From positions 7,427 to 71,426 of the forward strand of contig JACQHR010000011.1 in assembly GCA_016198905.1 (NCBI GenBank): a stretch of DNA of 64,000 nt, read 5' to 3'. The stretch comes from Candidatus Omnitrophota bacterium (lineage in GTDB: Bacteria > Omnitrophota > Gorgyraeia > Aquiviventales > Aquiviventaceae). The position numbers were made by a program, and so were the translations under genes. Numbering within the stretch: position 1 is the first letter of the stretch; each line of letters opens with the position of its first letter. The notes beneath the pieces were generated by a model, which saw only the letters and a list, made by a program, of their open reading frames with translations, did no database searches and was not told where the DNA came from. Below are positions 3,154 through 49,808 of this stretch, in pieces.

Positions 3154-3202
3154 GATCGTGCTAGTCTAACGTGAACCGGAGGAAAAATCATCTAACTTCC
3201 GG

Positions 3203-3658
3203 TTACTGTCCAGAATGTTTGGTGGCGTGGACGCCGAATTCGTGGACAAGACGGCCGCCGAGACGCGCGCCGAGGCTGAGTGTCACCGCCATCGCGAGCA
3301 TCAGGATCAAGCTGACGGCTTGCAGCGACGGGGGGAGCTGGTCGCGCTTGACGAGCCGCAGCGCGCTGGCCAGGGTCGCGAAGATGAGTGTCGCGAACCC
3401 GAACCGCTGATGTTGCTCCATCACCTTCCAAATCTCAAAGGAGTGCTTCGCGACTTCCGCCGCCTCGCGTCCGGTGAGGACCGCCACGCCCGCGCCGACG
3501 GTGCCGAGACACAGATTCCAGAGTGCCACGCGATGCAGCGCAGGCCGCTTCAAGATGATCGCGAGTCCATCCAACAGGACAGCGGTCAGCAGCAACGCGA
3601 TCGGAAAGTGCACGATCAGCGGATGGATGTAATGAATCACCTCAAGATCAACCATCAT
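3203..3658 (-). CDS. DUF2231-type membrane protein
   Basis: 151 aa, several hydrophobic helices, N-terminal HPLIVHFPIALL signature. Paralog at 14708..15178 (HPLVIHFPLAFL). Confidence 0.7.
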   Translation of the reverse strand: MMVDLEVIHYIHPLIVHFPIALLLTAVLLDGLAIILKRPALHRVALWNLCLGTVGAGVAVLTGREAAEVAKHSFEIWKVMEQHQRFGFATLIFATLASALRLVKRDQLPPSLQAVSLILMLAMAVTLSLGARLGGRLVHEFGVHATKHSGQ

Positions 3659-3676
3659 CTCGTGCGCTCCATTTCA

Positions 3677-5980
3677 CTATAACGCCATCTTGCGTAAGCG
3701 CAAGGCGTTGGCAATCACCGACACAGAACTGAAACTCATCGTGGCTGCGGCCAGCATGGGACTCAGGAGAATTCCCAACCAGGGATAGAGGATGCCGGCC
3801 GCTACCGGCACCCCGAGCGCGTTATAGATGAAGGCGAAGAACAAGTTCTGACGGATGTTGCGCATCGTCGCTCGGCTTAACACACGGGCGCGAACGATGC
3901 TGCGCAGATCGCCTTTGACGAGGGTGACGTCTGCGCTCTCCATCGCCACGTCCGTTCCAGTGCCCATCGCGATGCCGACGTTCGCTTGCGCGAGTGCGGG
4001 CGCGTCATTGACGCCATCACCCGCCACCGCGACGACGTGGCCTTGCCGCTGGAGGGTACTGACGATCTCGCCCTTGCGTTCCGGCCGCACGCCGGCATGG
4101 ACGTCGTCGATGCCGAGCGTTGACGCGATGGCGCGGGCCGTGATCTCGTTATCGCCGGTCGCCATGACGATCCGGATGCCGTCCTGCCGCAGCCGCGCGA
4201 TCGCCTCCGGTGTTGAGGGCTTGATGGGATCGGCGACACCGAGCAGCCCGGCGAGCCGTCCGTCGACGCTGACGAACATGACGGTCTGCCCCTCGCGCCG
4301 TAGCGCGTCCGCGCGCGGCGCCATCTCATTGACGGTCACGCCGAGCTCCTGCATGAAGGCCTGGTTCCCGAGGGCCACGCGATGGCCGTCCACGCGTCCG
4401 ACCACCCCCTGGCCTGTGTTCGATTGGAACTCTGACGCCGGCGCGAGCGTTATCTTCCGTGCGTGAGCTTCCGCGACGATCGCCTGCGCGAGCGGATGCT
4501 CGCTGGCGCGCTCGAGGCTCGCGGCGATGCGCAGCAGCGTCGACTCATCGGTCGGCGCGTGCGGCGCGATGGTCACCAGTGCGGGTTTGCCCTCAGTCAG
4601 CGTGCCGGTTTTATCGATGATCAGCGTCTCGACGTGTTCGAAGGTTTCCAGCGCCTCGGCATTCTTGATCAACACGCCGGCCTGCGCGCCGCGGCCGATG
4701 CCGACCATGATCGACATCGGCGTCGCCAACCCCAGCGCGCACGGACACGCGATGATCAGGACGGCCACCGCGTTGACCAGCGCGTACGTCAGGCGCGGCT
4801 GCGGCCCGATGAGCGCCCAGACCACGAAGGTGACGATGGCGATGAGGACGACCGCCGGCACGAAATAACCGGAGATGAGATCAGCCAATCGTTGGATCGG
4901 CGCTTTGCTGCGCTGCGCGTCACAGACCAGGCGGACGATTTGACTCAACAGCGTGTCGGCGCCGACCCGTGTGGCTTCCATGATGAGACTGCCCGTGCCA
5001 TTGATCGTGCCGCCGGTGACGCCGGCACCCGGCGTTTTCTCGACGGGGATCGGCTCTCCGGTGACCATGGACTCATCGACGGCGCTCGTCCCTTCCCGGA
5101 TGACGCCATCAGTGGGCATGCGCTCGCCGGGCCGCACGCGCAGTCGATCACCGACTGTGATGGCCTCAAGCGACACCTCTTCATCGGTGCCGTCCGGTCG
5201 AATCCGTTTCGCGGTCTTCGGTGCCAAGTTCAGGAGTGTTTTGATCGCGTCACTGGTGCGACTGCGAGCGCGTAACTCCAGCACTTGGCCGAGCAGGACC
5301 AGCGTGGTGATGACGGCGGCCGCTTCAAAATACACCGGCACGCTGCCGAGGTGGCTATGAAGCGATGCGGGAAACGTCCCGTGGAAGACGAGCGCAGCGA
5401 CGCTATAGCTGTAGGCGGCTCCCATCCCCAGCGCGATCAGCGTAAACATATTCAGGCTGCGGTGGATAAGTGACGCCCACCCGCGTTTGAAGAACGGCCA
5501 TCCGCCCCACCACACCACGGGAGTCGCCAGCGCGCATTGCAGCCAGGCCAGCAGTCGTGGTGAGAGCGCGCGTTGAAGCGGTTGGCCTGGAAGCATCTCC
5601 GACATCGCAAGCAGGAACACCGGCACGGTCAATGCCAGGCTGCTCCAGAAGCGCCGGGTCATGTCTTGCAACTCACCGTGCGATTCCTTCTGGGCGCTCG
5701 GTGCGAGAAGCTCAAGCGTCATGCCGCAGATCGGGCACGTCCCCGGCCCGCGTTGATGGATTTCAGGATGCATCGGACAAGTGTAGAGCGTCTCGCGTGC
5801 AGGAGTCGCGGTCGGCGATGTCGGCGTGACAGGACGCGCCGGCTGCGCCTGAAACGCCTTCAGACAATGCGCGCTGCAAAAGCGATAGGTCGTTCCGTGT
5901 CGTTCGGCCACGAGTGTCGTGGCAGGATCAACCTCCATCCCACAGATAGGATCTCGAATGGAAAGCGGTGGGACGGTCAT
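3677..5980 (-). CDS. copA: Copper-translocating P1B-type ATPase with N-terminal YHS/TRASH and CPxH..CPICGM metal-binding modules
   Basis: 767 aa with [10 protein letters not shown] (CPC), DKTGTLT and GDGVNDAP motifs. The N-terminus has [15 protein letters not shown] (YHS/TRASH type) and [14 protein letters not shown] instead of a classical HMA fold. Confidence 0.9.
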
Positions 5981-5981
5981 C

Positions 5982-7664
5982 TTAGCGAGTGTAGGCGTTC
6001 ATCACATACTGTTGGAGCATCCGCTGCGTATTGAAGAATGCGCCATTGATGGCGATCGCGTGGCGCATCACATCGATGAACCGGTCTCGGTTGCGATAGA
6101 ACACGGGCGCCACGGTCCGTTCCAGCGCGTCGTACAAGAAGGCGGCATCCTGCGCAGCATCCCTTGGCGTTCCCTCGTTGCCGCCATCTTGGCCAATCGC
6201 CCAGCCTGTGATCCCTTCAATGTGTCCCTCAAGCCACCAGCCATCCAGGATGCTCAGACTCGGCACCCCGTTGAGCGCGGCCTTCATGCCGCTGGTCCCC
6301 GAGGCCTCGAGCGGTGGCTGAGGGGTGTTCAACCATACGTCCACTCCCGCCGTGATGAACTGGCCTAGCTCCATGTCATAGTTTTCCAGGTAAGCCACTT
6401 TGAGGTAGGATTGCAGCGCCTCCTTGGCCTTGATGATGCGTTGAATGAGCGTTTTCCCTTCCTGATCCTGGGGATGCGCCTTGCCGGCATAGATGACCTG
6501 GATCGGGCCGGTGTTCGCCACAATGCGCTTGAGCCGCTCCAGATCGTGAAACAACAAATCGGTTCGCTTGTACGTCGCCGCCCGTCGCGCAAACCCAAGC
6601 GTGAAATGATCGACGTCCATCCCCAGGTTCGTCTGGTCGTTTACGTATTCGAGGAGCCGCTTCTTGGCCTGCAGGTGGGTCGCCCACAACTCCTGCTTGG
6701 GAATGTTGAGCGCATAGCGAAGGCTGAAGTTATCCTGTCGCCAGCCAGGAATATAGCGATCAAACAGCTGCTGAAAGGGTGGTGAAGTCCATGTCACGGC
6801 GTGGACGCCATTGGTGATCGCATCAATCTTGTAGCGGGCGAACATCAACTGAGAGACTTCCCCATGACGCTTGGCGACCCCGTTGACGTAGTGGCTCAGG
6901 TTCAGCGCCAGATAGGTCATATTCAGCAGCCCTTCGCAGCAGAACACCTCGTGCATGTCATATACGTCGCGGCGCCCCAAGACCTGGATCACAAGGTCCA
7001 TTGGGAACTTGTCATGCCCGGCCGGTACCGGGGTGTGGGTGGTGAACACGCACTGCTTGCGGACGACGTCGACATCCTCATGCGTGATGGCGGTTCGTCC
7101 CGCCTGCGTGGCCGCTTCATCGAGCAATTCGAGGGTCAACAGGCTCGCGTGCCCTTCGTTCATGTGGAACCGCGTGAGCTGATCATAGCCCAACGCGCGC
7201 AGCATCCGTACCCCGCCGATTCCGAGGACGGCTTCCTGGCAGAGCCGATAGTGCTGATCCCCGCCGTAGAGGTAGTGGGTCAGCGTCCGATCGCCCTCGG
7301 CATTCTCCGGCAGGTCGGTATCGAGAAGAAAGACCGGCACGGTGAATCCCTCGGCCCCCTGCACGTCGTACTGCCAGGCACGGATGTGGACGGTGCGTCC
7401 CTCAATCATGACCGTGACGCGCTGGGAGCGTTCTCTCAGGTAGTCCTCGACCGCCCACTCCACCGGCTCTTCTCGCTGCCACCCAGTGGCATCCAGCCGC
7501 TGGTAGAAATACCCCTTCCGATGGAGCAACGTAACCGCGACCAGAGAAATGCTAAGATCCGCAGCCGAGCGAATCGTATCGCCCGCCAGCACGCCCAACC
7601 CACCGCTATACGTGGGGATCCCGTGCTCCAAGCAGATCTCCATGGAGAAGTAGGCGATGCTCAT
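5982..7664 (-). CDS. glgP: Alpha-glucan (glycogen/maltodextrin) phosphorylase, short type
   Basis: 560 aa starting [19 protein letters not shown], with the [14 protein letters not shown] pyridoxal-phosphate lysine motif. Confidence 0.85.
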
Positions 7665-8782
7665 GCTGTCACGTTCCTGATGAATCGTTGGGGAGCTGCC
7701 TCAAACTGTTGCCGGCACTTGAGAGAACAGAACCGGTAGAGCGTCCCTCGATCGGTCGCTGAGAAACCAGAGAGCGCAGGGTCCACGTCCATGCCGCAGA
7801 CGACATCGTGGACCCTGCGCGTTTGTGGGGGAGCCGGGGGTGCGGTCGTGACTTCCAAGGATTTGACGATGATTTGGCCCAGCAGCCGTTCGACATCTTC
7901 TCGACGGCAGAGCTGCGTGCCCTCGTGCATGACGGCCGCTGTGCCGGCGGCGGTGCCCAGTCTCATGGCGGATTCCAGCGGTTGACCTTGGGAGAGCGCA
8001 AACACGAACCCGGCCAGGAACGAATCGCCGGCCCCGACTTTGCTTTTGACCTCGACATCAGGACTGGTCACATGGAGCGCCGCATCCTGACTGACGATCA
8101 GCGCCCCCCTGCGTCCTAACGTGATCGCCACGACCTGGACGCCCTCCTGCACGAGTTGCCGGGCTGCGCCGACCATCGCCTGTTCATCGGGCAGCGACCG
8201 ACCCATGAGCCGGGCGAACTCGTGTTCGTTCGGTTTGATCAGGTAGGGCTTGGCTTGCAGGCCGAGCTTCAAGACCTCGTCATCAGCATCCAGCAGACAC
8301 TTCATGCCGCGCTGTTGGAGGGTCGTGATGAGCTTGGCGTAAAAGTCTTCCGGCACCCCTGGCGGGAGGCTCCCTCCGAGCACCCACCACGGGGGCGTCG
8401 GCTGATAGGTCACGATCTTCTGCATGAAGCCTTCAACATCCGCCAGCGTCATCCGGGGACCCGGCGCACTGATGCGCGTCTGGGTCCGATCAGAACGATC
8501 CGTCAGGATGACGTTGATGCGAGTTTCCTCCGGAACCTCGATCGCCTCAAACGGGATGCCATGCTCGGCCATCAGACTCTTGAGCATGTAGCCGGCACAG
8601 CCCCCGGAGACGCCGAAGGCCACCGTTTCGCCGCCAAGTTCTTTCACGACTCGTGAGACGTTGATGCCTTTGCCGCCAGGGTCACGGCGGATCTCGCGTG
8701 CCCGGATGGCATCGTCCTTCATCAGCTTGTCGATCAGGATATGCTGATCGATTGACGGATTGATCGTGACCGTTCCAATCAT
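7661..8782 (-). CDS. PfkB-family (1-phosphofructokinase-like) sugar kinase fused to a C-terminal YHS/TRASH domain
   Basis: 373 aa with DPGGKGINV and [11 protein letters not shown]fkB motifs. The C-terminal ~45 aa read [28 protein letters not shown]. Overlaps glgP by 4 nt. Confidence 0.8.
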
Positions 8783-9803: not shown

Positions 9804-10244
9804 TCAGGAGGCGGATGTTCTCACTGGGTCCGTCTCGACCGTGTCCAACCGATGGATCCATTCAGGAACCCTGAACTGCTTGATCGATTCTCGGTTCGTG
9901 TAGGGCTTGAGATCCAGGATCGGTGTGCCCTCCCACGCATCCAATCCTTCAACCTGCAGCGTGGACCCTCGGCGCTTGAGGAGCCTGACGACGGTCACTC
10001 CCAGCGGATTCGGCCGATGCGGAGTTCGGGTGGACAGGAATCCGAGCTTTGGCAGCGCCTTGATGCCCTTGGGATGAATCCTGAGCGCTGGCTTTCCTGC
10101 CTGATGCAGCCAGAAGAGAGCAAGGATGTGCGAGAAATCCTCAATCCCTTCAAGCCCCTTGGCCCAGCGTCGATGAATTCGAATCGCGCCACCTTCCACA
10201 CGGCCGATTGGCCGGAGAACAAGAGATCCTCTATGACGACTCAT
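9804..10244 (-). CDS. trmO: tRNA (N6-threonylcarbamoyladenosine37-N6)-methyltransferase TrmO (TsaA/YaeB family)
   Basis: 146 aa with RTPHRPNPLGVTVVRL and GTPILDLKPY motifs characteristic of the TsaA-like fold. Confidence 0.8.
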   Translation of the reverse strand: MSRHRGSLVLRPIGRVEGGAIRIHRRWAKGLEGIEDFSHILALFWLHQAGKPALRIHPKGIKALPKLGFLSTRTPHRPNPLGVTVVRLLKRRGSTLQVEGLDAWEGTPILDLKPYTNRESIKQFRVPEWIHRLDTVETDPVRTSAS

Positions 10245-10257: not shown

Positions 10258-11733
10258 TTACAGGCTCTTCTTGCTTGACGCCAACCACCGGCTCACCCGT
10301 GATCGCTTCGGTGGCTCTTCGTCCGGTTCGATCGGTCCCGCGAGGTTTGACGCGGCCTCGCGCAACGCCTCCTCTCCAACAATCCCCTGTGTGACCAGCA
10401 ACGTGATACTGCTTTCCAGCGCGTGCATCCCTTCATGGACTCCGAGCTCGATGTAGCCGCGCAGCTCATGGAGCGCATTGCGGCGGATGACGTTGCGCAC
10501 TGCCAGCGTGGCTAGAAGCACCTCGGTCGCCGCGACCATCCCGGTTCCGTCCCGGCGCTTGAGGAGCCGTTGGGCGACGATCGCTTGAAGGGATTGAGTC
10601 AGTTGGATACGGATCTGTCCCTGGATCTCAGCCTCGAACACATCCAGGATGCGCGTGATCGCCTGGATCGTCGTTCCGCTGTGCAAAGTCCCCAGGACGA
10701 GATGGCCGGTTTCCGCCGCGGTGATGGCCAGCGCAATGCTTTCCCGATCCCGCAGTTCGCCAACCATGATGATGTCCGGGTGTTCGCGCAGCGCGCTGCG
10801 CAACCCATCGGCAAAGGATCGGGTATGGGCGTCCAGTTCCCGCTGGTGGATCAGCGAGCGCTTGTTGGGAATCACGTACTCAATGGGATCTTCAATGGTG
10901 ATGATGTGCCGCTCATCCCGCTGGTTGATGGCATCGATGAGGGCGGCCAGCGTGGTGGACTTGCCGCTTCCCGCTGGCCCGGTCACCAAAATCAGGCCTC
11001 GTGGGCAGCGGCTGAGTTGCTCGAAGATCGGTGGCAGACCCAATTCAGCCAGGGTTGGGATCCGATGGGGAAGAGGCCGGAACGCGATGGCCTGCCCGTC
11101 TTGTTCCCGGAAGACGTTCACCCGAAAGCGCGATAAGCCCTCGATCCCGATCCCCACGTCCACCTCGCGGCCTTCGAGGAATTGCGTCCGCTTGGCCTCC
11201 GGCAACAACGCTTCGATGATGCAGGAGAGGCGGTCTGCGGTCAGCGGAGCGTTGTTGAGCGGCTTGAACGAGCCGTACACCTTGAGGGTGGGCCGATCGG
11301 CGACGGCCAAGAAGAGGTCTGAGGCATTCTGCCGGACCGCCTGTTCCAACCACGGCAGCAGCCCACAGCGGCTCAGGCGTTCGACGAGATTCGCTGGCTG
11401 CTGGACCCCTGGCATAGGAGCCAGCGCCGGGCGTTCGCCGGATTGACTCAAAAACACCGAGGCGCACGTCGGGCAGCAGAATTGGTACGTGGATCCCCGG
11501 ATCGTGAGCGGTGCCGTCGATTCCCCCTGATGGATCGTCTTGCGGCACAGCTCACAATGTCCTGTGGGCGCCTGCGGCTGCTGCTGAGCGAGAAAGCGCT
11601 CCGGCTCCATGAGGAAGGCGCGCTGGCAGGACTCTGCGCAGAAGAAATGCCGCGTGCCAGCGTGGTCGTCATAGAGTCGCGCCTGCTCGGCCTGTTCGAC
11701 CAGCACCTCCATGCCACACACGGGGTCACGCAT
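10258..11733 (-). CDS. pilT: PilT-family type IV pilus retraction-type ATPase with two N-terminal YHS/TRASH-like zinc/copper modules
   Basis: Walker A GPAGSGKSTTLAA, IITIEDPIEY and MVGELRD motifs. The N-terminus has DPVCGMEV..HFFCAESCQRAF and CELCRKT..YQFCCPTCASVF. I chose the start at ATG 11733, which has AAGGAGG 6 nt upstream; the track start 11883 overlaps the previous gene. Confidence 0.85.
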   Translation of the reverse strand: MRDPVCGMEVLVEQAEQARLYDDHAGTRHFFCAESCQRAFLMEPERFLAQQQPQAPTGHCELCRKTIHQGESTAPLTIRGSTYQFCCPTCASVFLSQSGERPALAPMPGVQQPANLVERLSRCGLLPWLEQAVRQNASDLFLAVADRPTLKVYGSFKPLNNAPLTADRLSCIIEALLPEAKRTQFLEGREVDVGIGIEGLSRFRVNVFREQDGQAIAFRPLPHRIPTLAELGLPPIFEQLSRCPRGLILVTGPAGSGKSTTLAALIDAINQRDERHIITIEDPIEYVIPNKRSLIHQRELDAHTRSFADGLRSALREHPDIIMVGELRDRESIALAITAAETGHLVLGTLHSGTTIQAITRILDVFEAEIQGQIRIQLTQSLQAIVAQRLLKRRDGTGMVAATEVLLATLAVRNVIRRNALHELRGYIELGVHEGMHALESSITLLVTQGIVGEEALREAASNLAGPIEPDEEPPKRSRVSRWLASSKKSL

Positions 11734-11743
11734 TGGACCTCCT

Positions 11744-12382
11744 TCACTCATGCAGGGCATTGAGGAGGCCCTCAATCCCTTGGTCGTCGTACAGCTTCCG
11801 CAGACGTTTTCGCTCAGTGCGAATCGCATCGTCGGCCTCAGAGGCTGGAAGTTCTTGCGGTTCCGGAGGCCAGAGTGTCCCATCTTGGAAGCGCACCATC
11901 TTTACCGTCAGGAGGGCTTTCACTACCTCCTCAGTCTGTGAAACCCGTTGTTCCCAACGCCGCTGGCGCATCTCTCCGAGCGTGAGTGTTTGGTTATCGT
12001 TCACTTCAACTACCCAGCGCGTTTGATCGAACGCATCGAGCAGTTTCCACTGGAACCGGACGGCGCTCACACTCCGTTTGCTGCTGTTGCGATACCGAAG
12101 CTGGCCCTCCCAATGGTCGAACTGTGCGCTGTGGATATTAGCAGACTTCGTCCGAGTATGATGAGCAGCACCGACACGTGAAGGGACCGCCTGATACTCC
12201 AAGAGTTGTCCCGTGGCTTCGAGCACATCGATTGGTGCAGCAGGCACCTTCACCACCTCAACCGGAACCTCCTGATCGGCAAACGTACGTCCCATTATCG
12301 AGCCATACAACACGCTGGCGGCGAACACCCATCTGAGTGCCTGGGGCACGACGTGGCTGGAGGATCGCTCCTCACCGCGCAT
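11744..12382 (-). CDS. Hypothetical secreted protein
   Basis: 212 aa ORF with a hydrophobic signal-like N-terminus (VFAASVLYGSIMG) and a coding-like composition. I recognise no family. Confidence 0.5.
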   Translation of the reverse strand: MRGEERSSSHVVPQALRWVFAASVLYGSIMGRTFADQEVPVEVVKVPAAPIDVLEATGQLLEYQAVPSRVGAAHHTRTKSANIHSAQFDHWEGQLRYRNSSKRSVSAVRFQWKLLDAFDQTRWVVEVNDNQTLTLGEMRQRRWEQRVSQTEEVVKALLTVKMVRFQDGTLWPPEPQELPASEADDAIRTERKRLRKLYDDQGIEGLLNALHE

Positions 12383-12391
12383 CCTACCCTC

Positions 12392-12808
12392 TCACTGACC
12401 TTTCCGCAGCTCTCGGAGCCCTTCGAGCACTTCAACGTGCCCCTCGTGCTCCTCGGCCAATGCGTTGCTGGCTTCGGCTGCCTCTTGGTACTTCTTGACC
12501 AACGCCTCACAGTGAGCCAGCCATACATCCCGTTCCTGCGGTCCGCTCCATGACAGATTTTCGCGTACCTTTTCCGCCATGGTCTGGTGAAACGCCGCTC
12601 GCTTTCTCAACTGCGCCGCCTCTCTGCGGTAGGCGGCCGCCAACCGCTGATGCGCCCTGGGGTTCAACGAGTAGTCAGCCGTCTTTTGATACCACCACAA
12701 TGGTAAGGTGGTCGCACAGCCCTGGAGGAGCAGCGTGAATCCGACGACTCCGGCAATCAAAAATATCGCAGTCCTGACCTTCATCGTGTCCTTCGTCGGA
12801 TGTCTCAC
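12392..12808 (-). CDS. Hypothetical lipoprotein, helical
   Basis: Lipobox-like LLLQGCATT after a signal peptide. An alternative start at MKVRTAIF (12784) is likely. Confidence 0.5.
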   Translation of the reverse strand: MRHPTKDTMKVRTAIFLIAGVVGFTLLLQGCATTLPLWWYQKTADYSLNPRAHQRLAAAYRREAAQLRKRAAFHQTMAEKVRENLSWSGPQERDVWLAHCEALVKKYQEAAEASNALAEEHEGHVEVLEGLRELRKGQ

Positions 12809-13021
12809 CTAACCCTGGGACGAGCGGGTTTGCCTGATCAGGTGTTCGGCCTCCAACCAATTCTCCAGATCTTGCCCTTCGACTCGGCCGTTCTGCTCCC
12901 AAAGCTCATAGGCCTTTTGCGCGACTTGTTGCTGCAAGTCTTGCCCTTGGGCTGGAGCTTGGTTCGTCTGTTTGGTTGCCGCCTTGGGCCTTGCCATTGA
13001 GATTCTCCTTCTGTTGACCAC
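12809..13021 (-). CDS. DUF2934-like small protein
   Basis: The segment AYELWEQNGRVEGQDLENWLEAEHLI matches the DUF2934 signature (A..LWE..G.P.G....W..AE). The true start may be MARPKAA (12997). Confidence 0.6.
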   Translation of the reverse strand: MVNRRRISMARPKAATKQTNQAPAQGQDLQQQVAQKAYELWEQNGRVEGQDLENWLEAEHLIRQTRSSQG

Positions 13022-13027
13022 GGCCTA

Positions 13028-13417
13028 TCAAGTTCCTCTATGACCCATGGGACACCACCCGATCCGATGATGCAGGAGCGGGCAGGCGACGAACGTCCAC
13101 GCCACGGTGGCTACTGCAAAGATCACCACAACCCATGTCAACAGCCGCCGATACCGCCCATGCACCGCATTCAGGATATCCCGAAAGAACGACTGCTCCA
13201 CCAGCCGCAACTCACGGCTGCTTTCTTCTATACTTGAGGCTTTGCCGTCCTCAACCTGTTCCATCGCCTTCCTCCGCGCTAGTGACAGCCTCCTGACTTC
13301 TTCTGGGATCCATCTTTGTCTTCCTGTTTCCCCATCCCGCAACAACCACCTCGGCGCATCAACCACACCGCGACCCCAACCATAATCAGCACAAGCAACA
13401 GTTGTCCCATCGTTCAT
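13028..13417 (-). CDS. Hypothetical membrane-anchored protein with C-terminal Cys/His/Met motif
   Basis: 129 aa with one TM helix (LLTWVVVIFAVATVAWTFVA) followed by CPLLHHRIGWCPMGH. Confidence 0.45.
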   Translation of the reverse strand: MNDGTTVACADYGWGRGVVDAPRWLLRDGETGRQRWIPEEVRRLSLARRKAMEQVEDGKASSIEESSRELRLVEQSFFRDILNAVHGRYRRLLTWVVVIFAVATVAWTFVACPLLHHRIGWCPMGHRGT

Positions 13418-13458
13418 CCTCCTCTCTCAGTGTCCGCCTTATCGTGTTCGCCGTCGCA

Positions 13459-13794
13459 TTACTCGTGACATGTGCACTGGCCTGATGAACACCGGCACGG
13501 CTCTGGAGTATTGGCTCCCAGCTCGGCCTGTGTGTGTTCTGCGGCCGCCACAGCCTGTTTCAAGGTGCTCGCCAGCACCGACAGACCGATGATCTCACCA
13601 CTCAAACCCTGTCCTGCCGCGTCAATGCGCTCCAAGAGCGCGACCCGAGCGCAGGCATTGCACGGCGGCAGCATGCGTAAGGCCTGCTCGAATTGCTCCA
13701 TCAGGCCTCGGGTTCGTACCAGCGCCTGCCGCAGCTCATCGAGTCCCACACGCCGCCACAGATCTTCGCTATTCAATTCCGGTATCGTCGCCAT
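13459..13794 (-). CDS. Hypothetical Cys-rich small protein
   Basis: 111 aa, helical, with PPCNAC and a C-terminal CRCSSGQCTCHE cluster. Confidence 0.45.
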   Translation of the reverse strand: MATIPELNSEDLWRRVGLDELRQALVRTRGLMEQFEQALRMLPPCNACARVALLERIDAAGQGLSGEIIGLSVLASTLKQAVAAAEHTQAELGANTPEPCRCSSGQCTCHE

Positions 13795-13820
13795 TGTTAC
13801 GCCCCTCGGCGCTCCTTCGC

Positions 13821-14288
13821 TTAATGCCGATGCTGAACAGGCGCCTCATCCCCGGATGACGGCTGTGCCTGCTGCAGAAACTGTGCCGGCTCCTTGGCAA
13901 ACGCTCCGAGATGCGCTTCATTGGCAAAAAAGTAGGCGTGCCCATCATAGCTATAGATCAACGCTTGCGCCTTGTCGACCGGCTGGCCGCTGACAGGGTC
14001 CATGGTATGGCTAAACCGTTCTGGATCGCTGGCAAACCGTTTTAGACAACCGGCACAGCAGAGATAGTAGGTCTTACCTTGGTAGGCGTACTCTAGGCCG
14101 GGGGTCTTTTGGAGATTATCGTCGATCATACAGACAAGGCGGCGATCCTCTACGCGTCCCGTCGACATCGGGGCACCCGGTACGCTCTCTGCATTCGTTG
14201 CCGCTGCCAACAATCCAAGGAGTCCGATCGACAGCCATACCCTGTTCAGTCGTTTCATACGTCCTTCCCCCTGTTTTAAGATGGTCAC
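13821..14288 (-). CDS. Secreted YHS-domain protein (two YHS-like repeats)
   Basis: Signal peptide, then KTYYLCCAGCLKRFASDPERF and a second YDGHAYFFANEAHLGAFAKEPAQF repeat. Confidence 0.7.
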   Translation of the reverse strand: MTILKQGEGRMKRLNRVWLSIGLLGLLAAATNAESVPGAPMSTGRVEDRRLVCMIDDNLQKTPGLEYAYQGKTYYLCCAGCLKRFASDPERFSHTMDPVSGQPVDKAQALIYSYDGHAYFFANEAHLGAFAKEPAQFLQQAQPSSGDEAPVQHRH

Positions 14289-14695
14289 GGACGACCCTCC
14301 GGCGATGAGTTGCTGCGGCTGATCGGGCAGGTGGTGATCAACGGTAGCGACTCTTTCCTCCTCGGAACCCAGAAGGTGAAGAGCTCTCCGATGCCTGCTC
14401 CGGTGCGTGTCATCGTGGAACTGATCCCCTTTCCAAAGCCCGCCACCAAACTGCCTCCTGCTTTCACTTCGTCAACGGGTTGGATCAACATTTCCGTCCA
14501 GCCAAACGCGGTGTTTAACGCTCCCCGAACCAACGTTGCCCCAGCGTGTTGGGCGTACGGTGCGTTTGGATCGTTGGCGCTGCGGCAAATCGGACAAGTG
14601 ACCTGCCTCTCTTCGGCCCAAGCAGCCGGCGCTCCACCCAATGCGAATATAGTGCTGATCAGTAATCCGACGAACATTGGCGTGTTGATGCGCAT
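14285..14695 (-). CDS. TIGR04073-like (exosortase-system-associated family) periplasmic protein
   Basis: Signal peptide. RGALNTAFGWTEMLIQP and GAGIGELFTFWVP resemble the RG..N...GW.E / G..E..TF..P pattern of that family. Overlaps the next gene by 4 nt. Confidence 0.55.
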   Translation of the reverse strand: MRINTPMFVGLLISTIFALGGAPAAWAEERQVTCPICRSANDPNAPYAQHAGATLVRGALNTAFGWTEMLIQPVDEVKAGGSLVAGFGKGISSTMTRTGAGIGELFTFWVPRRKESLPLITTCPISRSNSSPEGRP

Positions 14696-14707
14696 GGCGA
14701 TTGCTCG

Positions 14708-15178
14708 TCAATGACTAAACTGAATCGGCTGGCGGCACGCCGAGCCACCGGCATTGTAGTCATACACCATCCGCCCGCCGAAGTCTGCTCCCCCCGTCAT
14801 TACGCCGATCATTACGAGTAACAGCAACAAGAACAACCGTCTCCCTTTCTTTGGAAATGGCCGAGCCAGACTTGCCCATGCGGTGAGCATCGCACATATC
14901 GCTACGGTCGCCAGCATCGCACTCTTATGCGGCCTGAGCAGATGTTCACGGACCGAGAGGGAAAGCATCACTCCCTGCTCGGCATAGAGGCCGGTTGCCA
15001 CGGCAACCATCAGGGAGAGCGTTCCCAGTACCAGCACCACAAACGCCGAGTGCGCGAACCGATCGCTCTTCAAGAGCCATGCCGCTATGTACAGGAGCGC
15101 AGCACCCATCAGAAACGCGAGGGGAAAGTGAATCACGAGTGGATGCAGATTCTGCAGGTGCTGCGCTCCGAGCAACAT
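14708..15178 (-). CDS. DUF2231-type membrane protein (paralog of 3203..3658)
   Basis: The internal ATG at 15178 gives MLLGAQHLQNLHPLVIHFPLAFL. The Arg-rich upstream part of the track ORF (to 15388) overlaps the preceding gene and looks non-coding. Confidence 0.7.
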   Translation of the reverse strand: MLLGAQHLQNLHPLVIHFPLAFLMGAALLYIAAWLLKSDRFAHSAFVVLVLGTLSLMVAVATGLYAEQGVMLSLSVREHLLRPHKSAMLATVAICAMLTAWASLARPFPKKGRRLFLLLLLVMIGVMTGGADFGGRMVYDYNAGGSACRQPIQFSH

Positions 15179-15183
15179 GACGA

Positions 15184-15576
15184 TTACTCCACCGATTCGA
15201 CGGTCACGTAGCGATTGCCCCCTTGTTCGTACAGATCGCCTGTCAGGGTCACTGTCTCCCCCATTCGAGCAATGACGCTCGCGGGATAGCCGGTCTTGTC
15301 TTCTTTGGGCAGCACGGTGTACAGCTTGCCCGTCCCGTCTTCCAGCATGCTGATGGGAATGCCCGCTTTCGCGCAGTCGATCGCGCACTGCTTATGCCCG
15401 GCGCCCTTCGCCGCCATGGCCACATAGCACAGCGAATCCACCAACTCCCCTTTAATCGTGATGGCTTGCACGCCCATACCGTGTGCGTGATCATGCTCAT
15501 GCTTCCCCTGGGCCCACGCCAACACCGGACTCAGGAGCAACATGGCGGCCGCTATCCCTCGCATCACATGCTTCAT
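15184..15576 (-). CDS. Periplasmic His-rich, three-Cys protein (paralog A) immediately downstream of cusA
   Basis: Start MKHVMRG at 15576 with TAAGGAGG upstream, a signal peptide, then GKHEHDHAHGMG, then GELVDSLCY..GHKQCAIDCAKAGIP. Paralog at 22001..22432. Confidence 0.6.
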   Translation of the reverse strand: MKHVMRGIAAAMLLLSPVLAWAQGKHEHDHAHGMGVQAITIKGELVDSLCYVAMAAKGAGHKQCAIDCAKAGIPISMLEDGTGKLYTVLPKEDKTGYPASVIARMGETVTLTGDLYEQGGNRYVTVESVE

Positions 15577-15647
15577 CTTCCCTTCCTCCTTAATTAGACC
15601 GTCGTGGTCTACGGCTGCAGTATCCCTTCGTGGTGCTCCTGCGTGAT

Positions 15648-18600
15648 TCAGGAATTCGAGCTGGCCAACGTCCCTGCGTGATGCTTGAGCACCCAATCAG
15701 CCTGGCCTTCTTTCATCTCGAACTTCCACTTCCAGATGGCATAGATGGTCGGATACACGAGCAGCTCCAGGATGAATGAGGAAAACAAGCCCCCCACCAT
15801 CGGCGCAGCGACTCGCTTCATCATGTCGGCCCCAGCCCCCGTCGACCACATGATCGGCAACAGTCCCATAAACGCGGCCATCACCGTCATCATCTTGGGC
15901 CGCACGCGCTTGACCGCGCCATGGACGATCGCTTCCTCCAGATCCTGCTCGGTGCGCATCCGGCCCTTCTCCACGGCGTCATGGTAGGACAGATCTAGAA
16001 ACAACAGCATGAAGACCCCGGTTTCCGCATCCAGTCCCATCAGGGCGATCATCCCCACCCACACCGCGATCGAGATGTTGTAGCCGAGCAACCACAGCAG
16101 CCAGACCGCCCCAATCAGCGAAAACGGCACGGCCAGCAAAACGATCGCCGTCTTCACCATGGACTTCGTGTTCATGTAGAGCAGGACACAGATGATAAAG
16201 ATGGTCAGCGGCAGCACGACCTTCATCCGCTCCTTTACCCGGATCATATTTTCGTACTGGCCGCTCCACGTCAGCGCGTAGCCTGGCGGGAGCTTGAGCT
16301 CCTTGGCCACGATCTGCTTGGCCTCTGTCACATAGCTGCCGATGTCTCGTCCGGCCATGTCGACGTAGACATAGCCGGCGAGCAGTCCATTCTCATTGCG
16401 GATCATGGCAGGTCCTGAGACCAGACGGATATCGGCCAGCTGCACCAAGGGGATGTGCTGACCCGCCGGGGTCGGCACGAGGACGCGCTTTAATTTCTCG
16501 ATGTCATCCCGAAACTCTCGGGAGTAGCGGACATTGACCGGATACCGCTCGCGACCCTCGATGGTCGTCGTGATGTTTTCGCCGCCAATCGCGGACATGA
16601 TGACCATCTGGACCTCAGCGACGGAGAGGCCGTAGCGTGCCAGCTCATCGCGGTTGAGGTCGAAATCCACGAAGTAGCCGCCGGCCACGCGCTCGGCGTA
16701 GATGCTGCGCGTGCCGGGCACGTTTTTGAGGATCATCTCCAGGTGCGTGCCGAGCTCTTCGATCTTCTTGAGATCGGCGCCGAAGATCTTGATGCCGATC
16801 GGCGTGCGCACGCCCGTCGTCAACATGTCGATGCGGTTTTTGATCGGCATCGTCCAGGCGTTGGTGACCCCGACGATCTTGAGTGAACGGTCCATCTCAT
16901 CGATGAGCTGTTCATACGAGATATGACAAGGCCAGAATGGGCGGAACGGCCCTTCAAGGAAGTCAGGCAGCCACGAGTACCACCGCTTGACTTGGCGCCA
17001 CTCCCGCTCCGGCTTCAGGAGAACCACCGTCTCCATCATGGAAAACGGGGCCGGGTCGGTGGAACTTTCCATTCGGCCAGATTTGCCGAACACTCGCTCC
17101 ACCTCTGGAAAACTCTTGAGCACCTGATCTTGCTTTTGCAGGAGTGCTTGGGCTTCTGTCACGGAAATACCAGGCAGGGTGGTAGGCATGTATAAGAGGC
17201 TGCCTTCCCGAAGCGGCGGCATGAACTCCGAACCCAGCCGCAAATAGATCGGCACGGTGGTGAGGACCAGCCCAAGGGCGGTCAACAGGGTTGCTTTGCG
17301 ATGCTTGAGGACGAACCGGCAGGCCGGCTCGTAGATGCGGAAGAGCACTTTACTGACGGGGTGCTTTTCTTCCGGATAGTAGGTGCCCACCGCGACGGTC
17401 GTCGCCGCTTTGGACGCCATCCCTCGGAGGCGCTCCGGGATCCAGCGGGCTTTCAGGGTGATCGGCTCCATGCGGGTGAAGAGCATCCGCATCGCGGGAT
17501 CGAGTGTGACCGCCAAGATCGCGGCGATCGCCATCGCCAGGTTCTTCGCCCAGGCGAGCGGCTTGAACAGGCGCCCCTCCTGATCGACCAGCGTAAAAAT
17601 CGGCATGAACGCGACGGCGATGACGAGCAGCGAGAAGAAGACCGATGGGCCGACTTCTTTCAGCGCCTTGAGTCGAATCGCATGGTAGTCGCCCTTGCGC
17701 CCGCCCTCGATCCACTGCTCGAGGCGCTTATAGGCGTTCTCTACCTCGACGATGGCGCCGTCCACCAGCACTCCGATGGAAATCGCCATGCCCGACAGCG
17801 ACATGATGTTGGAGGTCAGCCGCATCCCGTAGAGGGGAATGAACGAGAGGATTACGGAAATCGGAATCGTGACGATCGGGATGATCGCCGAGGGGAAGTG
17901 CCACAAGAAGATGAGGATCACGATGCTGACGATGATCATCTCTTCGATGAGCTTTTCCTTCAAGTTCTTGATGGCCTCGAGGATCAGTTCTGAGCGGTCG
18001 TAGGTGATTTCCACCTTCACCCCAGGTGGCAGCGATGGTTCGATGTCTTTCAGTTTCGCTTTGACCCGGTTGATGACGTTCAAAGCGTTTTCTCCAGACC
18101 GCATGATGACGGTGCCCCCGACGACATCCCCTTGGCCGTCGAAGTCGGCCAATCCTCGTCGCAGATCAGGGCCGAGTGCGACCGTGCCGATGTGCTTGAC
18201 TAAGATGGGCGTGCCCTTCTGGTCGGTCGCCACGACGATCTTTTCAATGTCCTCGACGGATTTGAGGTAGCCGCGGCCTCGGACCATGTACTCGGCCCCG
18301 GAGAACTCCAAGAGCCGGCCGCCCACCTCCTGGTTCCCCATCCGGATTGCGTCGACCACCTTCGTCAGCGGAATGTTGTAGGCGAGCAACCGGTTGGGGT
18401 CGATCGTGACTTGATACTGCTTGACGAATCCGCCGATCGAGGCGACTTCCGCCACTCCTGGAACGCTCTGGAGGTAATAGCGCAAATACCAATCCTGGTA
18501 GCTGCGCAACTCTTGAAGATTATGCTTGCCCGAGGTATCGACGAGGGCGTACTGAAACACCCAGCCCACCCCGGTCGCGTCTGGACCCAATTCAGTCCGG

Positions 18601-19064
18601 ACGCCCTCCGGCAAACGAGGGATGATCTTGCTCAGGTACTCCAGCGTCCGCGAGCGGGCCCAGTAGATGTCGGTCCCATCCTTGAAGATCACATAGACGT
18701 AGGAGAAGCCGAAGTCCGAGAAGCCCCGGATGGCCTTGACGCGCGGAGCCCCCAGCATCGCGGTGACGATTGGGTAGGTGACCTGGTCTTCGATGATGTC
18801 CGGGCTGCGATCCCAGCGAGAGTAGATAATGACCTGGGTATCCGACAAGTCGGGAATGGCATCCAAGGGAATGCTCTTGAGCGTCCAGATCGCGGCGATC
18901 ATCGCCACGACGACGAAGGTCAGCACGAGGAACTTGTTATGCGCGGAGAACTCAATGAGCTTTTCGATCACCCCACCCGTGCGCAAGGTCGGGGACTGGC
19001 CGCTCTCAGTCCCACCGACCTCGGGACGAACAGGTTCACTGGCCGCCATGTTGGTGCCCTCCAC
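15648..19064 (-). CDS. cusA: CusA/CzcA-family heavy-metal efflux RND permease
   Basis: 1138 aa with 12-TM RND architecture and typical HME-RND segments (AIPDLSDTQVII, GVGWVFQY, DGAIVEVEN). Confidence 0.95.
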   Translation of the reverse strand: MEGTNMAASEPVRPEVGGTESGQSPTLRTGGVIEKLIEFSAHNKFLVLTFVVVAMIAAIWTLKSIPLDAIPDLSDTQVIIYSRWDRSPDIIEDQVTYPIVTAMLGAPRVKAIRGFSDFGFSYVYVIFKDGTDIYWARSRTLEYLSKIIPRLPEGVRTELGPDATGVGWVFQYALVDTSGKHNLQELRSYQDWYLRYYLQSVPGVAEVASIGGFVKQYQVTIDPNRLLAYNIPLTKVVDAIRMGNQEVGGRLLEFSGAEYMVRGRGYLKSVEDIEKIVVATDQKGTPILVKHIGTVALGPDLRRGLADFDGQGDVVGGTVIMRSGENALNVINRVKAKLKDIEPSLPPGVKVEITYDRSELILEAIKNLKEKLIEEMIIVSIVILIFLWHFPSAIIPIVTIPISVILSFIPLYGMRLTSNIMSLSGMAISIGVLVDGAIVEVENAYKRLEQWIEGGRKGDYHAIRLKALKEVGPSVFFSLLVIAVAFMPIFTLVDQEGRLFKPLAWAKNLAMAIAAILAVTLDPAMRMLFTRMEPITLKARWIPERLRGMASKAATTVAVGTYYPEEKHPVSKVLFRIYEPACRFVLKHRKATLLTALGLVLTTVPIYLRLGSEFMPPLREGSLLYMPTTLPGISVTEAQALLQKQDQVLKSFPEVERVFGKSGRMESSTDPAPFSMMETVVLLKPEREWRQVKRWYSWLPDFLEGPFRPFWPCHISYEQLIDEMDRSLKIVGVTNAWTMPIKNRIDMLTTGVRTPIGIKIFGADLKKIEELGTHLEMILKNVPGTRSIYAERVAGGYFVDFDLNRDELARYGLSVAEVQMVIMSAIGGENITTTIEGRERYPVNVRYSREFRDDIEKLKRVLVPTPAGQHIPLVQLADIRLVSGPAMIRNENGLLAGYVYVDMAGRDIGSYVTEAKQIVAKELKLPPGYALTWSGQYENMIRVKERMKVVLPLTIFIICVLLYMNTKSMVKTAIVLLAVPFSLIGAVWLLWLLGYNISIAVWVGMIALMGLDAETGVFMLLFLDLSYHDAVEKGRMRTEQDLEEAIVHGAVKRVRPKMMTVMAAFMGLLPIMWSTGAGADMMKRVAAPMVGGLFSSFILELLVYPTIYAIWKWKFEMKEGQADWVLKHHAGTLASSNS

Positions 19065-22000: not shown

Positions 22001-22432
22001 TTACTGGGTTTTCTGCACGCTCGAGATCGCGATGAGGCGCTGCCCGTCGAGCTCCATCACTGTCCCGCGCACACTGACTATCTGCCCCGCGAACTCAGCT
22101 AGTTGCTGATTCGCCGGATTGTGGTCATTCATGGTCGCCAAGTAGAGTTGGTTGCCAACCTTGATGGCGACGGGTAAACCGCTCTTGATGCACTTCTTAG
22201 CGCAGCTTGCGTGCTTGGGCCCAATGCCCTCTGCCGGATGGCTGAGGTAGCAGAACACATCCGTGACTTCTCCAGTCAGTGTCTGCTCTTGCGGCGACCC
22301 TGTCATCGCCTGTTGCCCCGTGGCACCCATACCGTGATCATGGCCTCCATGCTCATGTTCGCTCTCGGCCAAGGCTGACGTTGCCCCAATCAACAACACC
22401 ATCCCGATAATTCCCTGCACTACGTGTTTCAT
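22001..22432 (-). CDS. Periplasmic His-rich, three-Cys protein (paralog B) upstream of cusC
   Basis: MKHVVQG start, signal peptide, SEHEHGGHDHGMG, then GEVTDVFCY..GPKHASCAKKCIKSGLP. Colinear with 15184..15576. Confidence 0.6.
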   Translation of the reverse strand: MKHVVQGIIGMVLLIGATSALAESEHEHGGHDHGMGATGQQAMTGSPQEQTLTGEVTDVFCYLSHPAEGIGPKHASCAKKCIKSGLPVAIKVGNQLYLATMNDHNPANQQLAEFAGQIVSVRGTVMELDGQRLIAISSVQKTQ

Positions 22433-22979: not shown

Positions 22980-23249
22980 CTATTTGACAAAGCGGTGGAT
23001 TGTTTGCATCAGTTCGGTGATCTTTGCTTTGCTCTCGCGTTTGCGGATCGCTTCGCTAACGCAGCCGTTGATGTGCCCATTCATGACTTTCAGCGAGACC
23101 TGGTCGAGCGCTTTGCGGGCCGCGGTGAGCTGCTGGATGATCTCGATGCAGTAGCGGCGCTGCTCGACCATGCGCGTGATGCCGCGCACCTGGCCTTCGA
23201 TGCGGCGCAGCCGTGGCAAGAGGTTATCGTGTTTCGGATATTCAGCCAT
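22980..23249 (-). CDS. csoR: CsoR-family copper-sensing transcriptional repressor
   Basis: An 89-aa product from ATG 23249 (MAEYPKHDNLLPRLRRIEGQVRGI..). C-H-C ligand pattern (RRYC ... GHINGC). The track start at 23339 (TTG) runs through a repeat hairpin. Confidence 0.85.
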   Translation of the reverse strand: MAEYPKHDNLLPRLRRIEGQVRGITRMVEQRRYCIEIIQQLTAARKALDQVSLKVMNGHINGCVSEAIRKRESKAKITELMQTIHRFVK

Positions 23250-23256
23250 AGGTTGG

Positions 23257-23290
23257 TACTCACCGGGAGTATACATACTCCCCCGTAGTA
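23257..23290 (-). promoter_or_regulatory. Two adjacent CsoR-type operator candidates
   Basis: TACTCACCGGGAGTA (23257-23271) and TACTCCCCCGTAGTA (23276-23290). Both have TAC..GTA arms around a G/C core and lie 8-41 nt upstream of the csoR start. Confidence 0.5.
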
Positions 23291-23305
23291 TGTCAAGTGC
23301 TATAA

Positions 23306-23397
23306 CAGCACAAAGCACTAAGCACACAGCACAAAGCAACTGCGTTCTGTGAAGATCCCACGACCCGCTTTATGCTTTGTGCTGTTTGCTGTGTGCT
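23306..23397. repeat. Heptamer-built inverted repeat (hairpin) between the DUF423 stop and the csoR promoter
   Basis: Left arm CAGCACAAAGCACTAAGCACACAGCACAAAGC, right arm TGCTTTGTGCTGTTTGCTGTGTGCT, loop of about 32 nt. Confidence 0.85.
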
Positions 23398-48723: not shown

Positions 48724-49326
48724 TTATTCCGAGGCGGCGTCGTGCTCGTGTTGCTGCAGCACTTGCAGCAACCGTTCCCGCTCGACCGGGTCGGTGAGAC
48801 CGGCGATGTCGGAAACGATCTGATCGCGCGCGCGCAAGTCTTCGACTGTGGCGGCCGACCCGAGATTCAACATCTCAATGCGGCTCTGCAGATCGCCGTT
48901 GGAGCTCTCCGGTTCCGGCGCCAGAGTCATCGACGTACGCGATGGAAGCGGGGCTCCTCCAAGCTGAGCCAGGCGCTCATTCAGCACCTGCTCGAGATGG
49001 GCTTGCTCCTCCTCATCATCGAGCTCCTGGATGGCGAAGGTAATGTCGTTGACCTTGCCTGTCTCGATGGGAACGTGCAACTGCTGAATCAAGCGTTCGA
49101 TGTTCGCGGTAGAAAGCTCCGGGTTATCAGGCATGGCGTCATCCGGCGACGCCATTTGGGGTTCTGCGGGGATGGGAAAGGCTTCCTCCGTCGCTGCGGC
49201 GACTGCGCGATGCCCAACCATAGCGCCGAAGATTAGCGCGACTAACGTCAATCGCTTGAGTGCGTTCATGGCAGTTACGATCATCTGAGGAAGTATGACC
49301 GGCAGCTCCAGCGCTGTCAAGATCAT
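48724..49326 (-). CDS. Hypothetical secreted acidic protein
   Basis: 200 aa with a signal-like LTLVALIFGAMVG and an acidic helical remainder. Confidence 0.45.
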   Translation of the reverse strand: MILTALELPVILPQMIVTAMNALKRLTLVALIFGAMVGHRAVAAATEEAFPIPAEPQMASPDDAMPDNPELSTANIERLIQQLHVPIETGKVNDITFAIQELDDEEEQAHLEQVLNERLAQLGGAPLPSRTSMTLAPEPESSNGDLQSRIEMLNLGSAATVEDLRARDQIVSDIAGLTDPVERERLLQVLQQHEHDAASE

Positions 49327-49330
49327 GCCA

Positions 49331-49789: not shown

Positions 49790-49808
49790 GATCGCCCCGC
49801 TATTGTCT

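Follow-up and report, generated by a model that had tools for sequence, protein, structure and literature searches.

The 64-kb stretch of Candidatus Omnitrophota DNA analyzed here, which we call the window, carries on its minus strand a gene for a PilT/PilU-family ATPase with two putative metal-binding domains at its N-terminus. The product begins with a YHS domain followed by a TRASH domain, which a disordered linker joins to a complete ATPase core; all domains of the product score above their curated cut-offs. The gene lies in a copper-efflux island headed by csoR. The gene and the parts of its product are the following:

10258..11733, minus strand: gene for the YHS-TRASH-PilT ATPase, 491 aa (open reading frame call, Pfam and NCBIfam matches, homologues with the same architecture)
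11738..11743, minus strand: Shine-Dalgarno-like AGGAGG, 4 nt upstream of ATG 11733, read directly from the sequence
11584..11730, minus strand, residues 2-50: YHS domain (PF04945), 43.9 bits against a cut-off of 30.3
11449..11556, minus strand, residues 60-95: TRASH domain TRASH_HVO_1752_C (PF24273), 31.5 bits against a cut-off of 27
11362..11448, minus strand, residues ~96-124: variable, disordered linker, recognized by a drop in model confidence and by low conservation
10351..11355, minus strand, residues 127-461: PilT/PilU-family core (TIGR01420), N-terminal and ATPase domains, 411.3 bits against a cut-off of 319.1
residues 199-393: T2SSE (PF00437), 165 bits, E 2e-48, against a cut-off of 24.9 bits
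10954..10980, minus strand, residues 252-260: Walker A GPAGSGKST, read from the sequence

In its longest reading the minus-strand open reading frame (ORF) extends over 10258..11883. The ATG at 11733 is nevertheless the credible start, because it follows the AGGAGG sequence, because the stop codon of the upstream gene lies at 11744-11746, and because the homologues, which fall into ~25 clusters, share an N-terminal M(R/K)DPVCGM equivalent to the Met at 11733. A start at 11883 was ruled out: it overlaps the upstream gene, lacks a ribosome-binding site and is not the start of the homologues, which open with the Met equivalent to 11733. An earlier note on this DNA, made from the sequence alone, had placed the start at 11733 and had described a complete PilT-type core preceded by YHS/TRASH-like cysteine motifs; both descriptions are borne out. 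Profile searches for T2SSE/PilT, YHS and TRASH returned every domain above its cut-off, and all of the motifs that had been quoted are present, namely GPAGSGKST, IITIEDPIEY, GELRD and AAETGHLVLGTLH in the core, and DPVCGM..FFCAESC and CELC..FCCPTC at the N-terminus. The TRASH region also gave a weak zf-FCS match. A Pfam scan of the 491-aa product found no MshEN domain, and an exact look-up of the protein found no identical protein on record.

On each of the sequence and fold criteria applied, the ATPase core is a PilT/PilU-family member. Residues 127-461 align to positions 4-339 of the 343 in the TIGR01420 model, and the catalytic boxes are intact: Walker A, GPAGSGKS(T); Asp box, IITIEDPIEY; Walker B, DIIMVGELRD; and His box, AAETGHLVLGTLH. 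The key residues of all four boxes are invariant across 25 family members of 52-92% identity, including G252, P253, G255, G257 and K258 of Walker A. The sequence match to Pseudomonas aeruginosa PilT (3jvu) has an E-value of 5e-87 and covers the full PilT length. The motif AIRNLIRE is a feature of PilT that is absent from PilU, and the window protein carries AVRNVIRR at the aligned position, where 5 of 8 residues are identical to those of P. aeruginosa PilT and 2 are conservative; in the family alignment R413 never varies, and at least 90% of members keep A411 and I416. To judge from these alignments, the core is under strong purifying selection.

An AlphaFold2 model of the product, built on the family alignment, has a mean predicted local distance difference test score (pLDDT) of 75, and its body is a standard two-domain PilT. 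When the whole model was submitted to Foldseek, the best matches were Geobacter PilT4 and P. aeruginosa PilT and PilU, with E-values of ~1e-35 and target template modelling (TM) scores of up to 0.83. Identity was 42-43% to PilT (3jvu/3jvv) and 39-41% to PilT4, the best chains of both giving target TM-scores of 0.82-0.83. The N-terminal part was modelled as two small, confidently folded ribbon domains (pLDDT 84-96 for YHS and ~80 for TRASH), and residues 101-113 of the linker fell below 50. With the N-terminal model alone, the best Foldseek matches in the Protein Data Bank were to ribosomal L24e and to the MYM-type TRASH domain 2das, at a root-mean-square deviation of 1.3-2.2 Å over ~40 residues. 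Their probabilities were 0.98-1.0 and their E-values weak (0.05-0.2), because the domain is very short.

The predicted metal ligands of both modules are conserved. The YHS domain reads D3-x2-C6 ... C32-x3-C36; D3 and C6 are kept in at least 90% of members, and C32 and C36 are invariant in our alignment (A2). The TRASH domain reads C60-x2-C63-x22-C86(C87)-x3-C90, and all five of these cysteines are invariant in the same alignment. Ettema and colleagues, cited in PMC4626032, reportedly gave in 2003 a TRASH spacing rule of C-x2-C-x19-22-C-x3-C. Across the family, at 50-92% identity, the linker between the modules and the core drifts freely while the predicted ligands stay conserved, a pattern which indicates that the modules are under selection. 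We infer from the conserved ligands that both modules bind metal. A YHS pattern of one Asp and three Cys has been described for adenylyl cyclases and Cu-ATPases, and this D/C/C/C pattern is the proposed copper site in the YHS domain of a Mycobacterium phlei cyclase (M. phlei; PMC4626032). In that fused adenylyl cyclase, the YHS domain turns the enzyme on with 1-10 uM copper and with no other metal tested (PMC4626032).

These modules could instead be structural zinc ribbons, interaction adaptors or Cu(I) buffers, so that any copper dependence of the protein would be purely transcriptional; we regard this as unlikely. It would suit the fact that TRASH/zf-FCS folds are classic Zn/Cd-binding ribbons and that the best fold matches of the N-terminus, weak E-values included, are L24e and an MYM TRASH domain, and the authors of the cyclase study themselves called copper binding to YHS/TRASH unproven in Cu-ATPases (PMC4626032). 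It sits less well with the M. phlei YHS domain, which is a copper-specific switch on a fused enzyme, or with the YHS ligands of the window protein, which are D/C/C/C as in the YHS of Cu-ATPases rather than four Cys. The N-terminus is, moreover, an established regulatory site in this ATPase superfamily, as MshEN and the receiver fusions of the same subfamily illustrate.

Proteins of this fused architecture do exist elsewhere, though they are rare. When 5.8 billion proteins were searched by word index, ~25 clusters combined PilT with YHS and/or TRASH, their identity being 50-92%, and the named cluster sources were metagenome-assembled genomes (MAGs) labelled Candidatus Omnitrophica or Omnitrophota, according to NCBI record titles. 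When a full-length profile was run with HMMER against 1.84 billion representatives at 50% identity, a single representative (P0019) matched through the N-terminus. The fused family collapses into P0019, and no independent YHS-PilT fusion was found among the best 150 HMMER matches. A word-indexed search with the N-terminal 110 aa gave one match, which is limited by the index and uninformative on other architectures. Scans for further loci yielded 5 in genomes and 7 in metagenomes.

In the window, the genes around the PilT gene form the island listed here, together with a second operon (3677..8782, minus strand) that lies ~1 kb beyond it. The cusA, CopA and phosphorylase genes of the window were named by identity to Pfam-annotated genes of a related locus, L001, and not by Pfam scan.

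22980..23339, minus strand: csoR, a CsoR-family repressor (PF02583), 99.8 bits; translation probably begins at ATG 23247
23268..23296, minus strand: promoter-like site TTGACA-17 nt-TATACT, sigma-70-like, 11 of 12 consensus positions, upstream of csoR
20427-21767, minus strand: cusC, OEP (Pfam)
19036-20427, minus strand: cusB, HMBD+HlyD_D23 (Pfam)
15648-19064, minus strand: cusA, 92% identity to an L001 gene annotated ACR_tran
11744..15696, minus strand: nine small genes between cusA and the PilT gene, among them the next four
13821-14288, minus strand: secreted double-YHS protein
12809-13021, minus strand: DUF2934 gene
12392-12808, minus strand: lipoprotein gene
11744-12382, minus strand: gene for a secreted 212-aa protein
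9804..10244, minus strand: TrmO/TsaA-like gene, 13 nt past the PilT stop (PF01980, 96 bits; TIGR00104, 99.3 bits against a cut-off of 93.25)
7661-8782, minus strand: PfkB kinase with a C-terminal YHS (Pfam)
5982-7664, minus strand: alpha-glucan phosphorylase, 96% identity to the L001 Phosphorylase gene
3677-5980, minus strand: CopA-type P1B ATPase, 65% identity to an L001 HMBD+E1-E2_ATPase gene

The layout of this island suggests a single transcription unit. Two small genes lie between csoR and cusC, with gaps of 233 and 105 nt there. From the double-YHS gene up to cusA the ORF calls overlap, probably owing to over-long start calls; from the double-YHS gene to the PilT gene the spacing is 12 nt or less, or the genes overlap, save for one 26-nt and one 41-nt gap. 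The PilT gene itself is flanked by gaps of 10 nt upstream and 13 nt downstream, and a consensus scan found no terminator-like site on the minus strand in the run from csoR to PilT. On this gene layout and the consensus scan, the run would be co-transcribed and controlled by CsoR. The spacer of the promoter-like site contains a palindrome, ATACTACGGGGGAGTAT (23275-23291), which occurs once in the window, against 0.04 occurrences expected by chance, and which we take, as a lead only, to resemble the Bacillus subtilis CsoR operator. The palindrome is a probable candidate for a CsoR operator. Neither elsewhere in the window nor in related loci did the ATACTACGGGGGAGTAT pattern recur, so that the search gave no evidence of an operator common to the loci. 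A mobile-element or non-coding explanation for the island was considered and rejected, as its GC content equals that of the window and neither tRNA nor integrase genes stand at its borders.

The run of small genes includes a secreted His/Met-rich protein, a DUF2231-like membrane protein, a TIGR04073-like protein and two small Cys-containing proteins; conservation of the secreted proteins encoded immediately before the PilT gene is confined to the closest relatives. In the double-YHS protein (13821-14288), the first YHS retains C..CC..C and the second is without cysteines (DPVSGQ...YFFANEAH). Two secreted HEHxHxHGMG paralogues with conserved Cys pairs, 15184-15576 and 22001-22432 on the minus strand, flank cusCBA; they are 31% identical (E 4e-21), match no family and are candidates for periplasmic copper-binding proteins. 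In the second operon, the CopA N-terminus carries a YHS-like DPICGMEV...YRFCSAHC and an HMBD-like CPMHP..CPICGM motif, both read from the translation. L001, which is syntenic with the window, has a cation diffusion facilitator (CDF; Cation_efflux) gene between CopA and a LOG-family gene, and the window has only ~520 bp there (3154-3676), with an implausible plus-strand ORF; the CDF gene appears to be missing or degraded. The remainder of the window consists of housekeeping genes.

Copper genes accompany most fused members elsewhere. Of the 11 fused loci with usable flanks, 9 have CopA and/or Cus genes at a distance of no more than 10 kb, these 11 being phylogenetically related and not independent samples. 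The nine are the window, L001, L002, L003, L004, L010, L012, L013 and L018, and they usually add CsoR, a P-II protein, a multicopper oxidase or a CDF. At least five gene orders occur among them, and the position of the PilT gene varies; the islands are therefore not one inherited block. The only recurrent nearby gene is DUF2934, found at 6 loci, which encodes a small cytoplasmic protein just upstream and is once fused to YHS. These results enlarge on what the earlier note had said of the surroundings. The neighbours it had described as cus genes and uncharacterized secreted or Cys-rich proteins are confirmed as cusCBA plus small secreted, lipoprotein or Cys/His-rich proteins; the architecture whose recurrence it had wished to see surveyed does recur, at 50-92% identity, with CopA/Cus genes nearby at 9 of 11 loci and pilus genes nearby at none; and the metal link it had suggested is strengthened by the csoR-headed island, by the 9 of 11 loci and by the conserved ligands.

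Could this placement be incidental packing in small, streamlined genomes, the protein being an ordinary extra PilT paralogue with inconsequential N-terminal domains? Island gene order is not fixed, as such packing would have it, and members of the wider subfamily described below occur in operons as disparate as Fic/PAP2 genes, transporters, an extracytoplasmic function (ECF) sigma factor and the pentose-phosphate pathway. We nonetheless consider this very unlikely: 9 of 11 fused loci are copper islands in at least five arrangements, where ~2% would be expected for a random gene (a rough estimate that assumes one 20-kb island per 2-Mb genome and is not corrected for relatedness), and the metal ligands are kept from 50 to 92% identity while the linker drifts.

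Genes for a pilus were sought nearby and not found. Among the ORFs scanned across the window there was no match to the T2SSF, pilin, PilMNOP or secretin families, and a six-frame search of the window gave no prepilin leader motif, in keeping with the earlier statement that pilB, pilC, pilMNOPQ and pilin genes are lacking from it. The label "orphan" that had been given to the gene stands insofar as no pilus gene is near. Not much should be read into it: pilT often lies apart from the genes of pilus assembly, as at the P. aeruginosa pilTU locus, and missing nearby pilus genes therefore say little.

Based on these findings, we tentatively propose, as a reading with slightly less than an even chance of being right, that the protein is a copper-induced, copper-gated PilT motor, most likely driving the retraction of type IVa pili encoded elsewhere. 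Judging from the gene layout, the gene would be co-transcribed with csoR-cusCBA and expressed when Cu(I) releases CsoR from the operator-like box. The N-terminal YHS and TRASH modules would then bind Cu(I), and the Cu(I)-bound modules, acting through the flexible linker, may alter the assembly or the conformational cycling of the ATPase ring, making the protein a one-component sensor-motor. Family membership and the biology of the lineage suggest that the output is most likely type IVa pilus retraction, with the pilus genes elsewhere in the genome; under copper stress, pili could be lost and the cell could detach or move. Versions with a receiver, TRASH alone or YHS alone would feed other signals into the same motor. 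We propose retraction because pilT genes are so often unlinked and because type IVa pilus genes are near-universal in Omnitrophota. They have been reported in 135 of 141 Velamenicoccia, 19 of 23 Omnitrophia and 38 of 40 Gorgyraia genomes (PMC10066038). We propose copper gating because of the conserved ligands and the precedent of the M. phlei cyclase (PMC4626032).

Several observations weigh against this copper-gated pilus motor. No pilus gene lies within 10 kb at any of 16 subfamily loci; two fused members (L005 and L020) lie outside copper islands; and two unfused relatives stand where a pilus role would not predict them. Both of these are on long contigs; one comes after an ECF sigma/anti-sigma pair, and the other is inside a pentose-phosphate operon (PGI, transketolase/transaldolase, glucokinase, 6PGD, G6PD, PGL and RpiB).

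The wider subfamily to which these relatives belong was defined by a search with an unfused member and a quick neighbour-joining distance tree of the core region. Its clade is 55-68% identical to the core of the window protein, against 43-47% for canonical PilTs. The N-terminal slot holds a receiver domain, YHS+TRASH, YHS only, TRASH only or no recognizable domain. Receiver-fused members are P0130, P0316, P0323, P0328 and P0329, and the TRASH-only form comprises eight clusters starting GYCDLCSK...FxFCCxSCE, a motif missed by precomputed Pfam labels. The YHS-TRASH-PilT proteins thus look, from the tree and domain content, to be one branch of a larger PilT subfamily with interchangeable inputs. 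Elsewhere in the PilT family there are MshEN- (P0152), GAF- and DUF4388-fused cores; N-terminal inputs are therefore a known design, and the metal-binding version is the new part. The closest relatives outside the subfamily are the C-terminal halves of tandem PilT-PilT proteins of 720-740 aa (P0025-P0120 and P0122-P0127), which come from MAGs labelled Lentisphaeria, Victivallaceae and Polyangia and score 590-650 bits, against ~400 for single canonical PilTs.

One unfused member (L008, 9944-11111) is on the same 81-kb contig as the fused locus L003 and lies in a Czc-type island. This PilT gene is split by a frameshift in the assembly (178 + 209 aa), and an intact orthologue exists (P0109). The island contains OEP, a His-rich membrane fusion protein (MFP), a resistance-nodulation-division (RND) pump, P-II, a receiver, PilT, a Zn/Cd-type P-ATPase, CDF and ArsR; the labels were read from ORF translations, except those of the RND pump (35% identity to CusA) and the P-type ATPase (33% to CopA). 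The receiver domain is encoded by a separate gene directly upstream of the unfused PilT. That an unfused member also sits in a metal island fits modules that serve as zinc ribbons, adaptors or buffers, since island association then does not need YHS/TRASH.

The same locus bears on another explanation, in which the subfamily is not a pilus motor at all and is instead an ATP-driven part of an undescribed metal-stress process at efflux islands. Such a part might assemble, remodel or extract envelope or efflux components or handle metal-damaged proteins, and YHS/TRASH would be its metal input or a docking site for CopA- or CopZ-like partners. We assign this a low probability. The earlier note had offered both ideas, metal-gated pilus dynamics and recruitment into an undescribed metal-handling or export machine, and the present results are compatible with either. 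The non-pilus motor would explain why pilus genes are near none of the 16 loci, yet 9 of 11 fused loci are copper islands; why an unfused paralogue is found in a Czc-type island on the contig of L003; why the subfamily stands apart from canonical PilT (43-47% against 55-68%); and why the DUF2934 protein recurs just upstream, once with a YHS of its own. DotB and TraJ, PilT-like ATPases that serve machines other than pili, would be its precedents. The islands lack, however, any other conserved specific partner, and no candidate platform protein, that is, a PilC/GspF/TadB-like polytopic membrane protein, was found in them. Gene position within the islands varies, other subfamily members sit in unrelated operons, and PilT-specific features, including the AIRNLIRE-like motif, are retained; and, pilT being so commonly unlinked, the nearby absence of pilus genes is a weak argument. 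Extended to the whole Omnitrophota-type PilT subfamily, the idea would be that of a signal-gated hexameric ATPase, taking receiver, YHS or TRASH inputs, for an undescribed stress response, with the YHS-TRASH branch copper-switched for Cus/CopA islands and the unfused paralogue serving Czc-type ones. This broader version seems quite improbable to us, and if it were true, the subfamily would be a new accessory motor of heavy-metal resistance.

YHS domains are also appended to other cytoplasmic enzymes of the copper islands: PfkB, alpha-glucan phosphorylase, a phosphoenolpyruvate (PEP)-utilising enzyme, Pyr_redox and DUF2934 (window 7661-8782, minus strand; L002 156-1988 and 9161-10207; L003 13425-15341 and 9548-9925). 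This suggests that YHS is a portable copper tag or switch used across the lineage. That so many unrelated cytoplasmic enzymes bear it would also fit a generic copper-sequestering or targeting tag, as the explanation by ribbons, adaptors or buffers would have it. Genes of carbohydrate catabolism, in addition, recur near the subfamily (phosphorylase, PfkB, pyruvate kinase, PEPCK, amylase, GH65 and HPr), in the window at 5982-8782 and 23766-24812 and at L012, L013, L015, L021 and the P0308 locus.

Comparison with known systems shows which parts of the copper-gated motor are familiar. The solved PilT retraction ATPases (3jvu/3jvv, Geobacter PilT4 6ojx and Aquifex PilT 2ewv) have the same two-domain fold, catalytic boxes and AIRNLIRE-like motif, and lack the 125-residue YHS+TRASH extension that the window protein adds at its N-terminus. 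Unlike canonical PilT, the window protein belongs to a separate subfamily, its gene neither stands alone nor accompanies pil genes but lies in a copper-efflux island, and its pilus role is a proposal. MshE, PilB and GspE share the design of a sensory or adaptor N-terminal domain on a hexameric ATPase of the secretion superfamily; MshEN binds c-di-GMP, and the N1 domain of GspE binds GspL. Those proteins are mostly extension or secretion ATPases sensing c-di-GMP (cyclic di-GMP) or partners, whereas the window protein has a metal-binding ribbon input, as predicted, and a PilT-type core. Closer in input are the CopA-type P1B ATPases with their YHS, HMBD and HMA N-termini: the CopA encoded nearby (3677-5980) has a closely similar motif at its N-terminus, and YHS is annotated on the CopAs of related loci. 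A module common to CopA and PilT suggests a shared ligand or shared partners, although in CopA the domain sits on a metal-moving transporter and in the window protein on a soluble motor without a transport domain. The receiver-PilT fusions, from the same subfamily (58-62% core identity for P0130, P0316 and P0323), have their input domain at the same position, where phosphorylation would take the place of metal. The M. phlei cyclase likewise joins a D-x2-C...C-x3-C YHS by a short linker to an oligomeric, nucleotide-using enzyme (PMC4626032). In the cyclase, the YHS is C-terminal, single and attached to a dimeric enzyme, whereas the window protein has its YHS at the N-terminus, together with a four-Cys TRASH, on a predicted hexameric motor.

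The usual view is that PilT is regulated indirectly, through partner proteins or second messengers. If metal-binding domains are an integral part of a PilT that is conserved in copper islands, one protein would link metal stress directly to a mechanical motor. Such a protein would also offer a tractable system for probing what YHS/TRASH do, which even for copper ATPases is still mostly unproven. Should the motor act on pili, metal resistance would gain a new behavioural arm, copper-triggered retraction, in a phylum regarded as living attached to host cells; should it act on something else, heavy-metal islands would hold an unrecognized ATP-driven component. In either case, the interchangeable receiver, YHS and TRASH inputs are natural chimeras for studying N-terminal control of secretion-superfamily ATPase rings. 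In the literature we found no paper linking YHS/TRASH to PilT, or PilT to cus/cop islands, in a search whose coverage was incomplete and which leaves such absence unproven. A study of groundwater MAGs records PilT (K02669) and a P-type Cu+ transporter, without remarking on either, in a set of ORFs whose identity between Patescibacteria and Omnitrophota UBA12090 MAGs exceeds 95% (PMC8672522), and this list fits a mobile or mis-binned copper island carrying PilT.

Two further features of the window lie outside the island. A 412-aa ORF (28656-29894, minus strand) without a Pfam or NCBIfam match has a low GC content at third codon positions (0.45); GC content in the window dips only here, to 0.526 at 28-30 kb, and the ORF may be foreign DNA. 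A c-di-GMP-I riboswitch (RF01051; 52060-52134, minus strand; 58.9 bits, gathering score 35) immediately precedes a gene for a 710-aa protein with a K319L-like PKD domain (49885-52017, minus strand), which is followed by two ORFs without a family match (49331-49885 and 48724-49326, both minus strand). Together, 48724-52134 looks like a c-di-GMP-controlled surface or adhesion operon.

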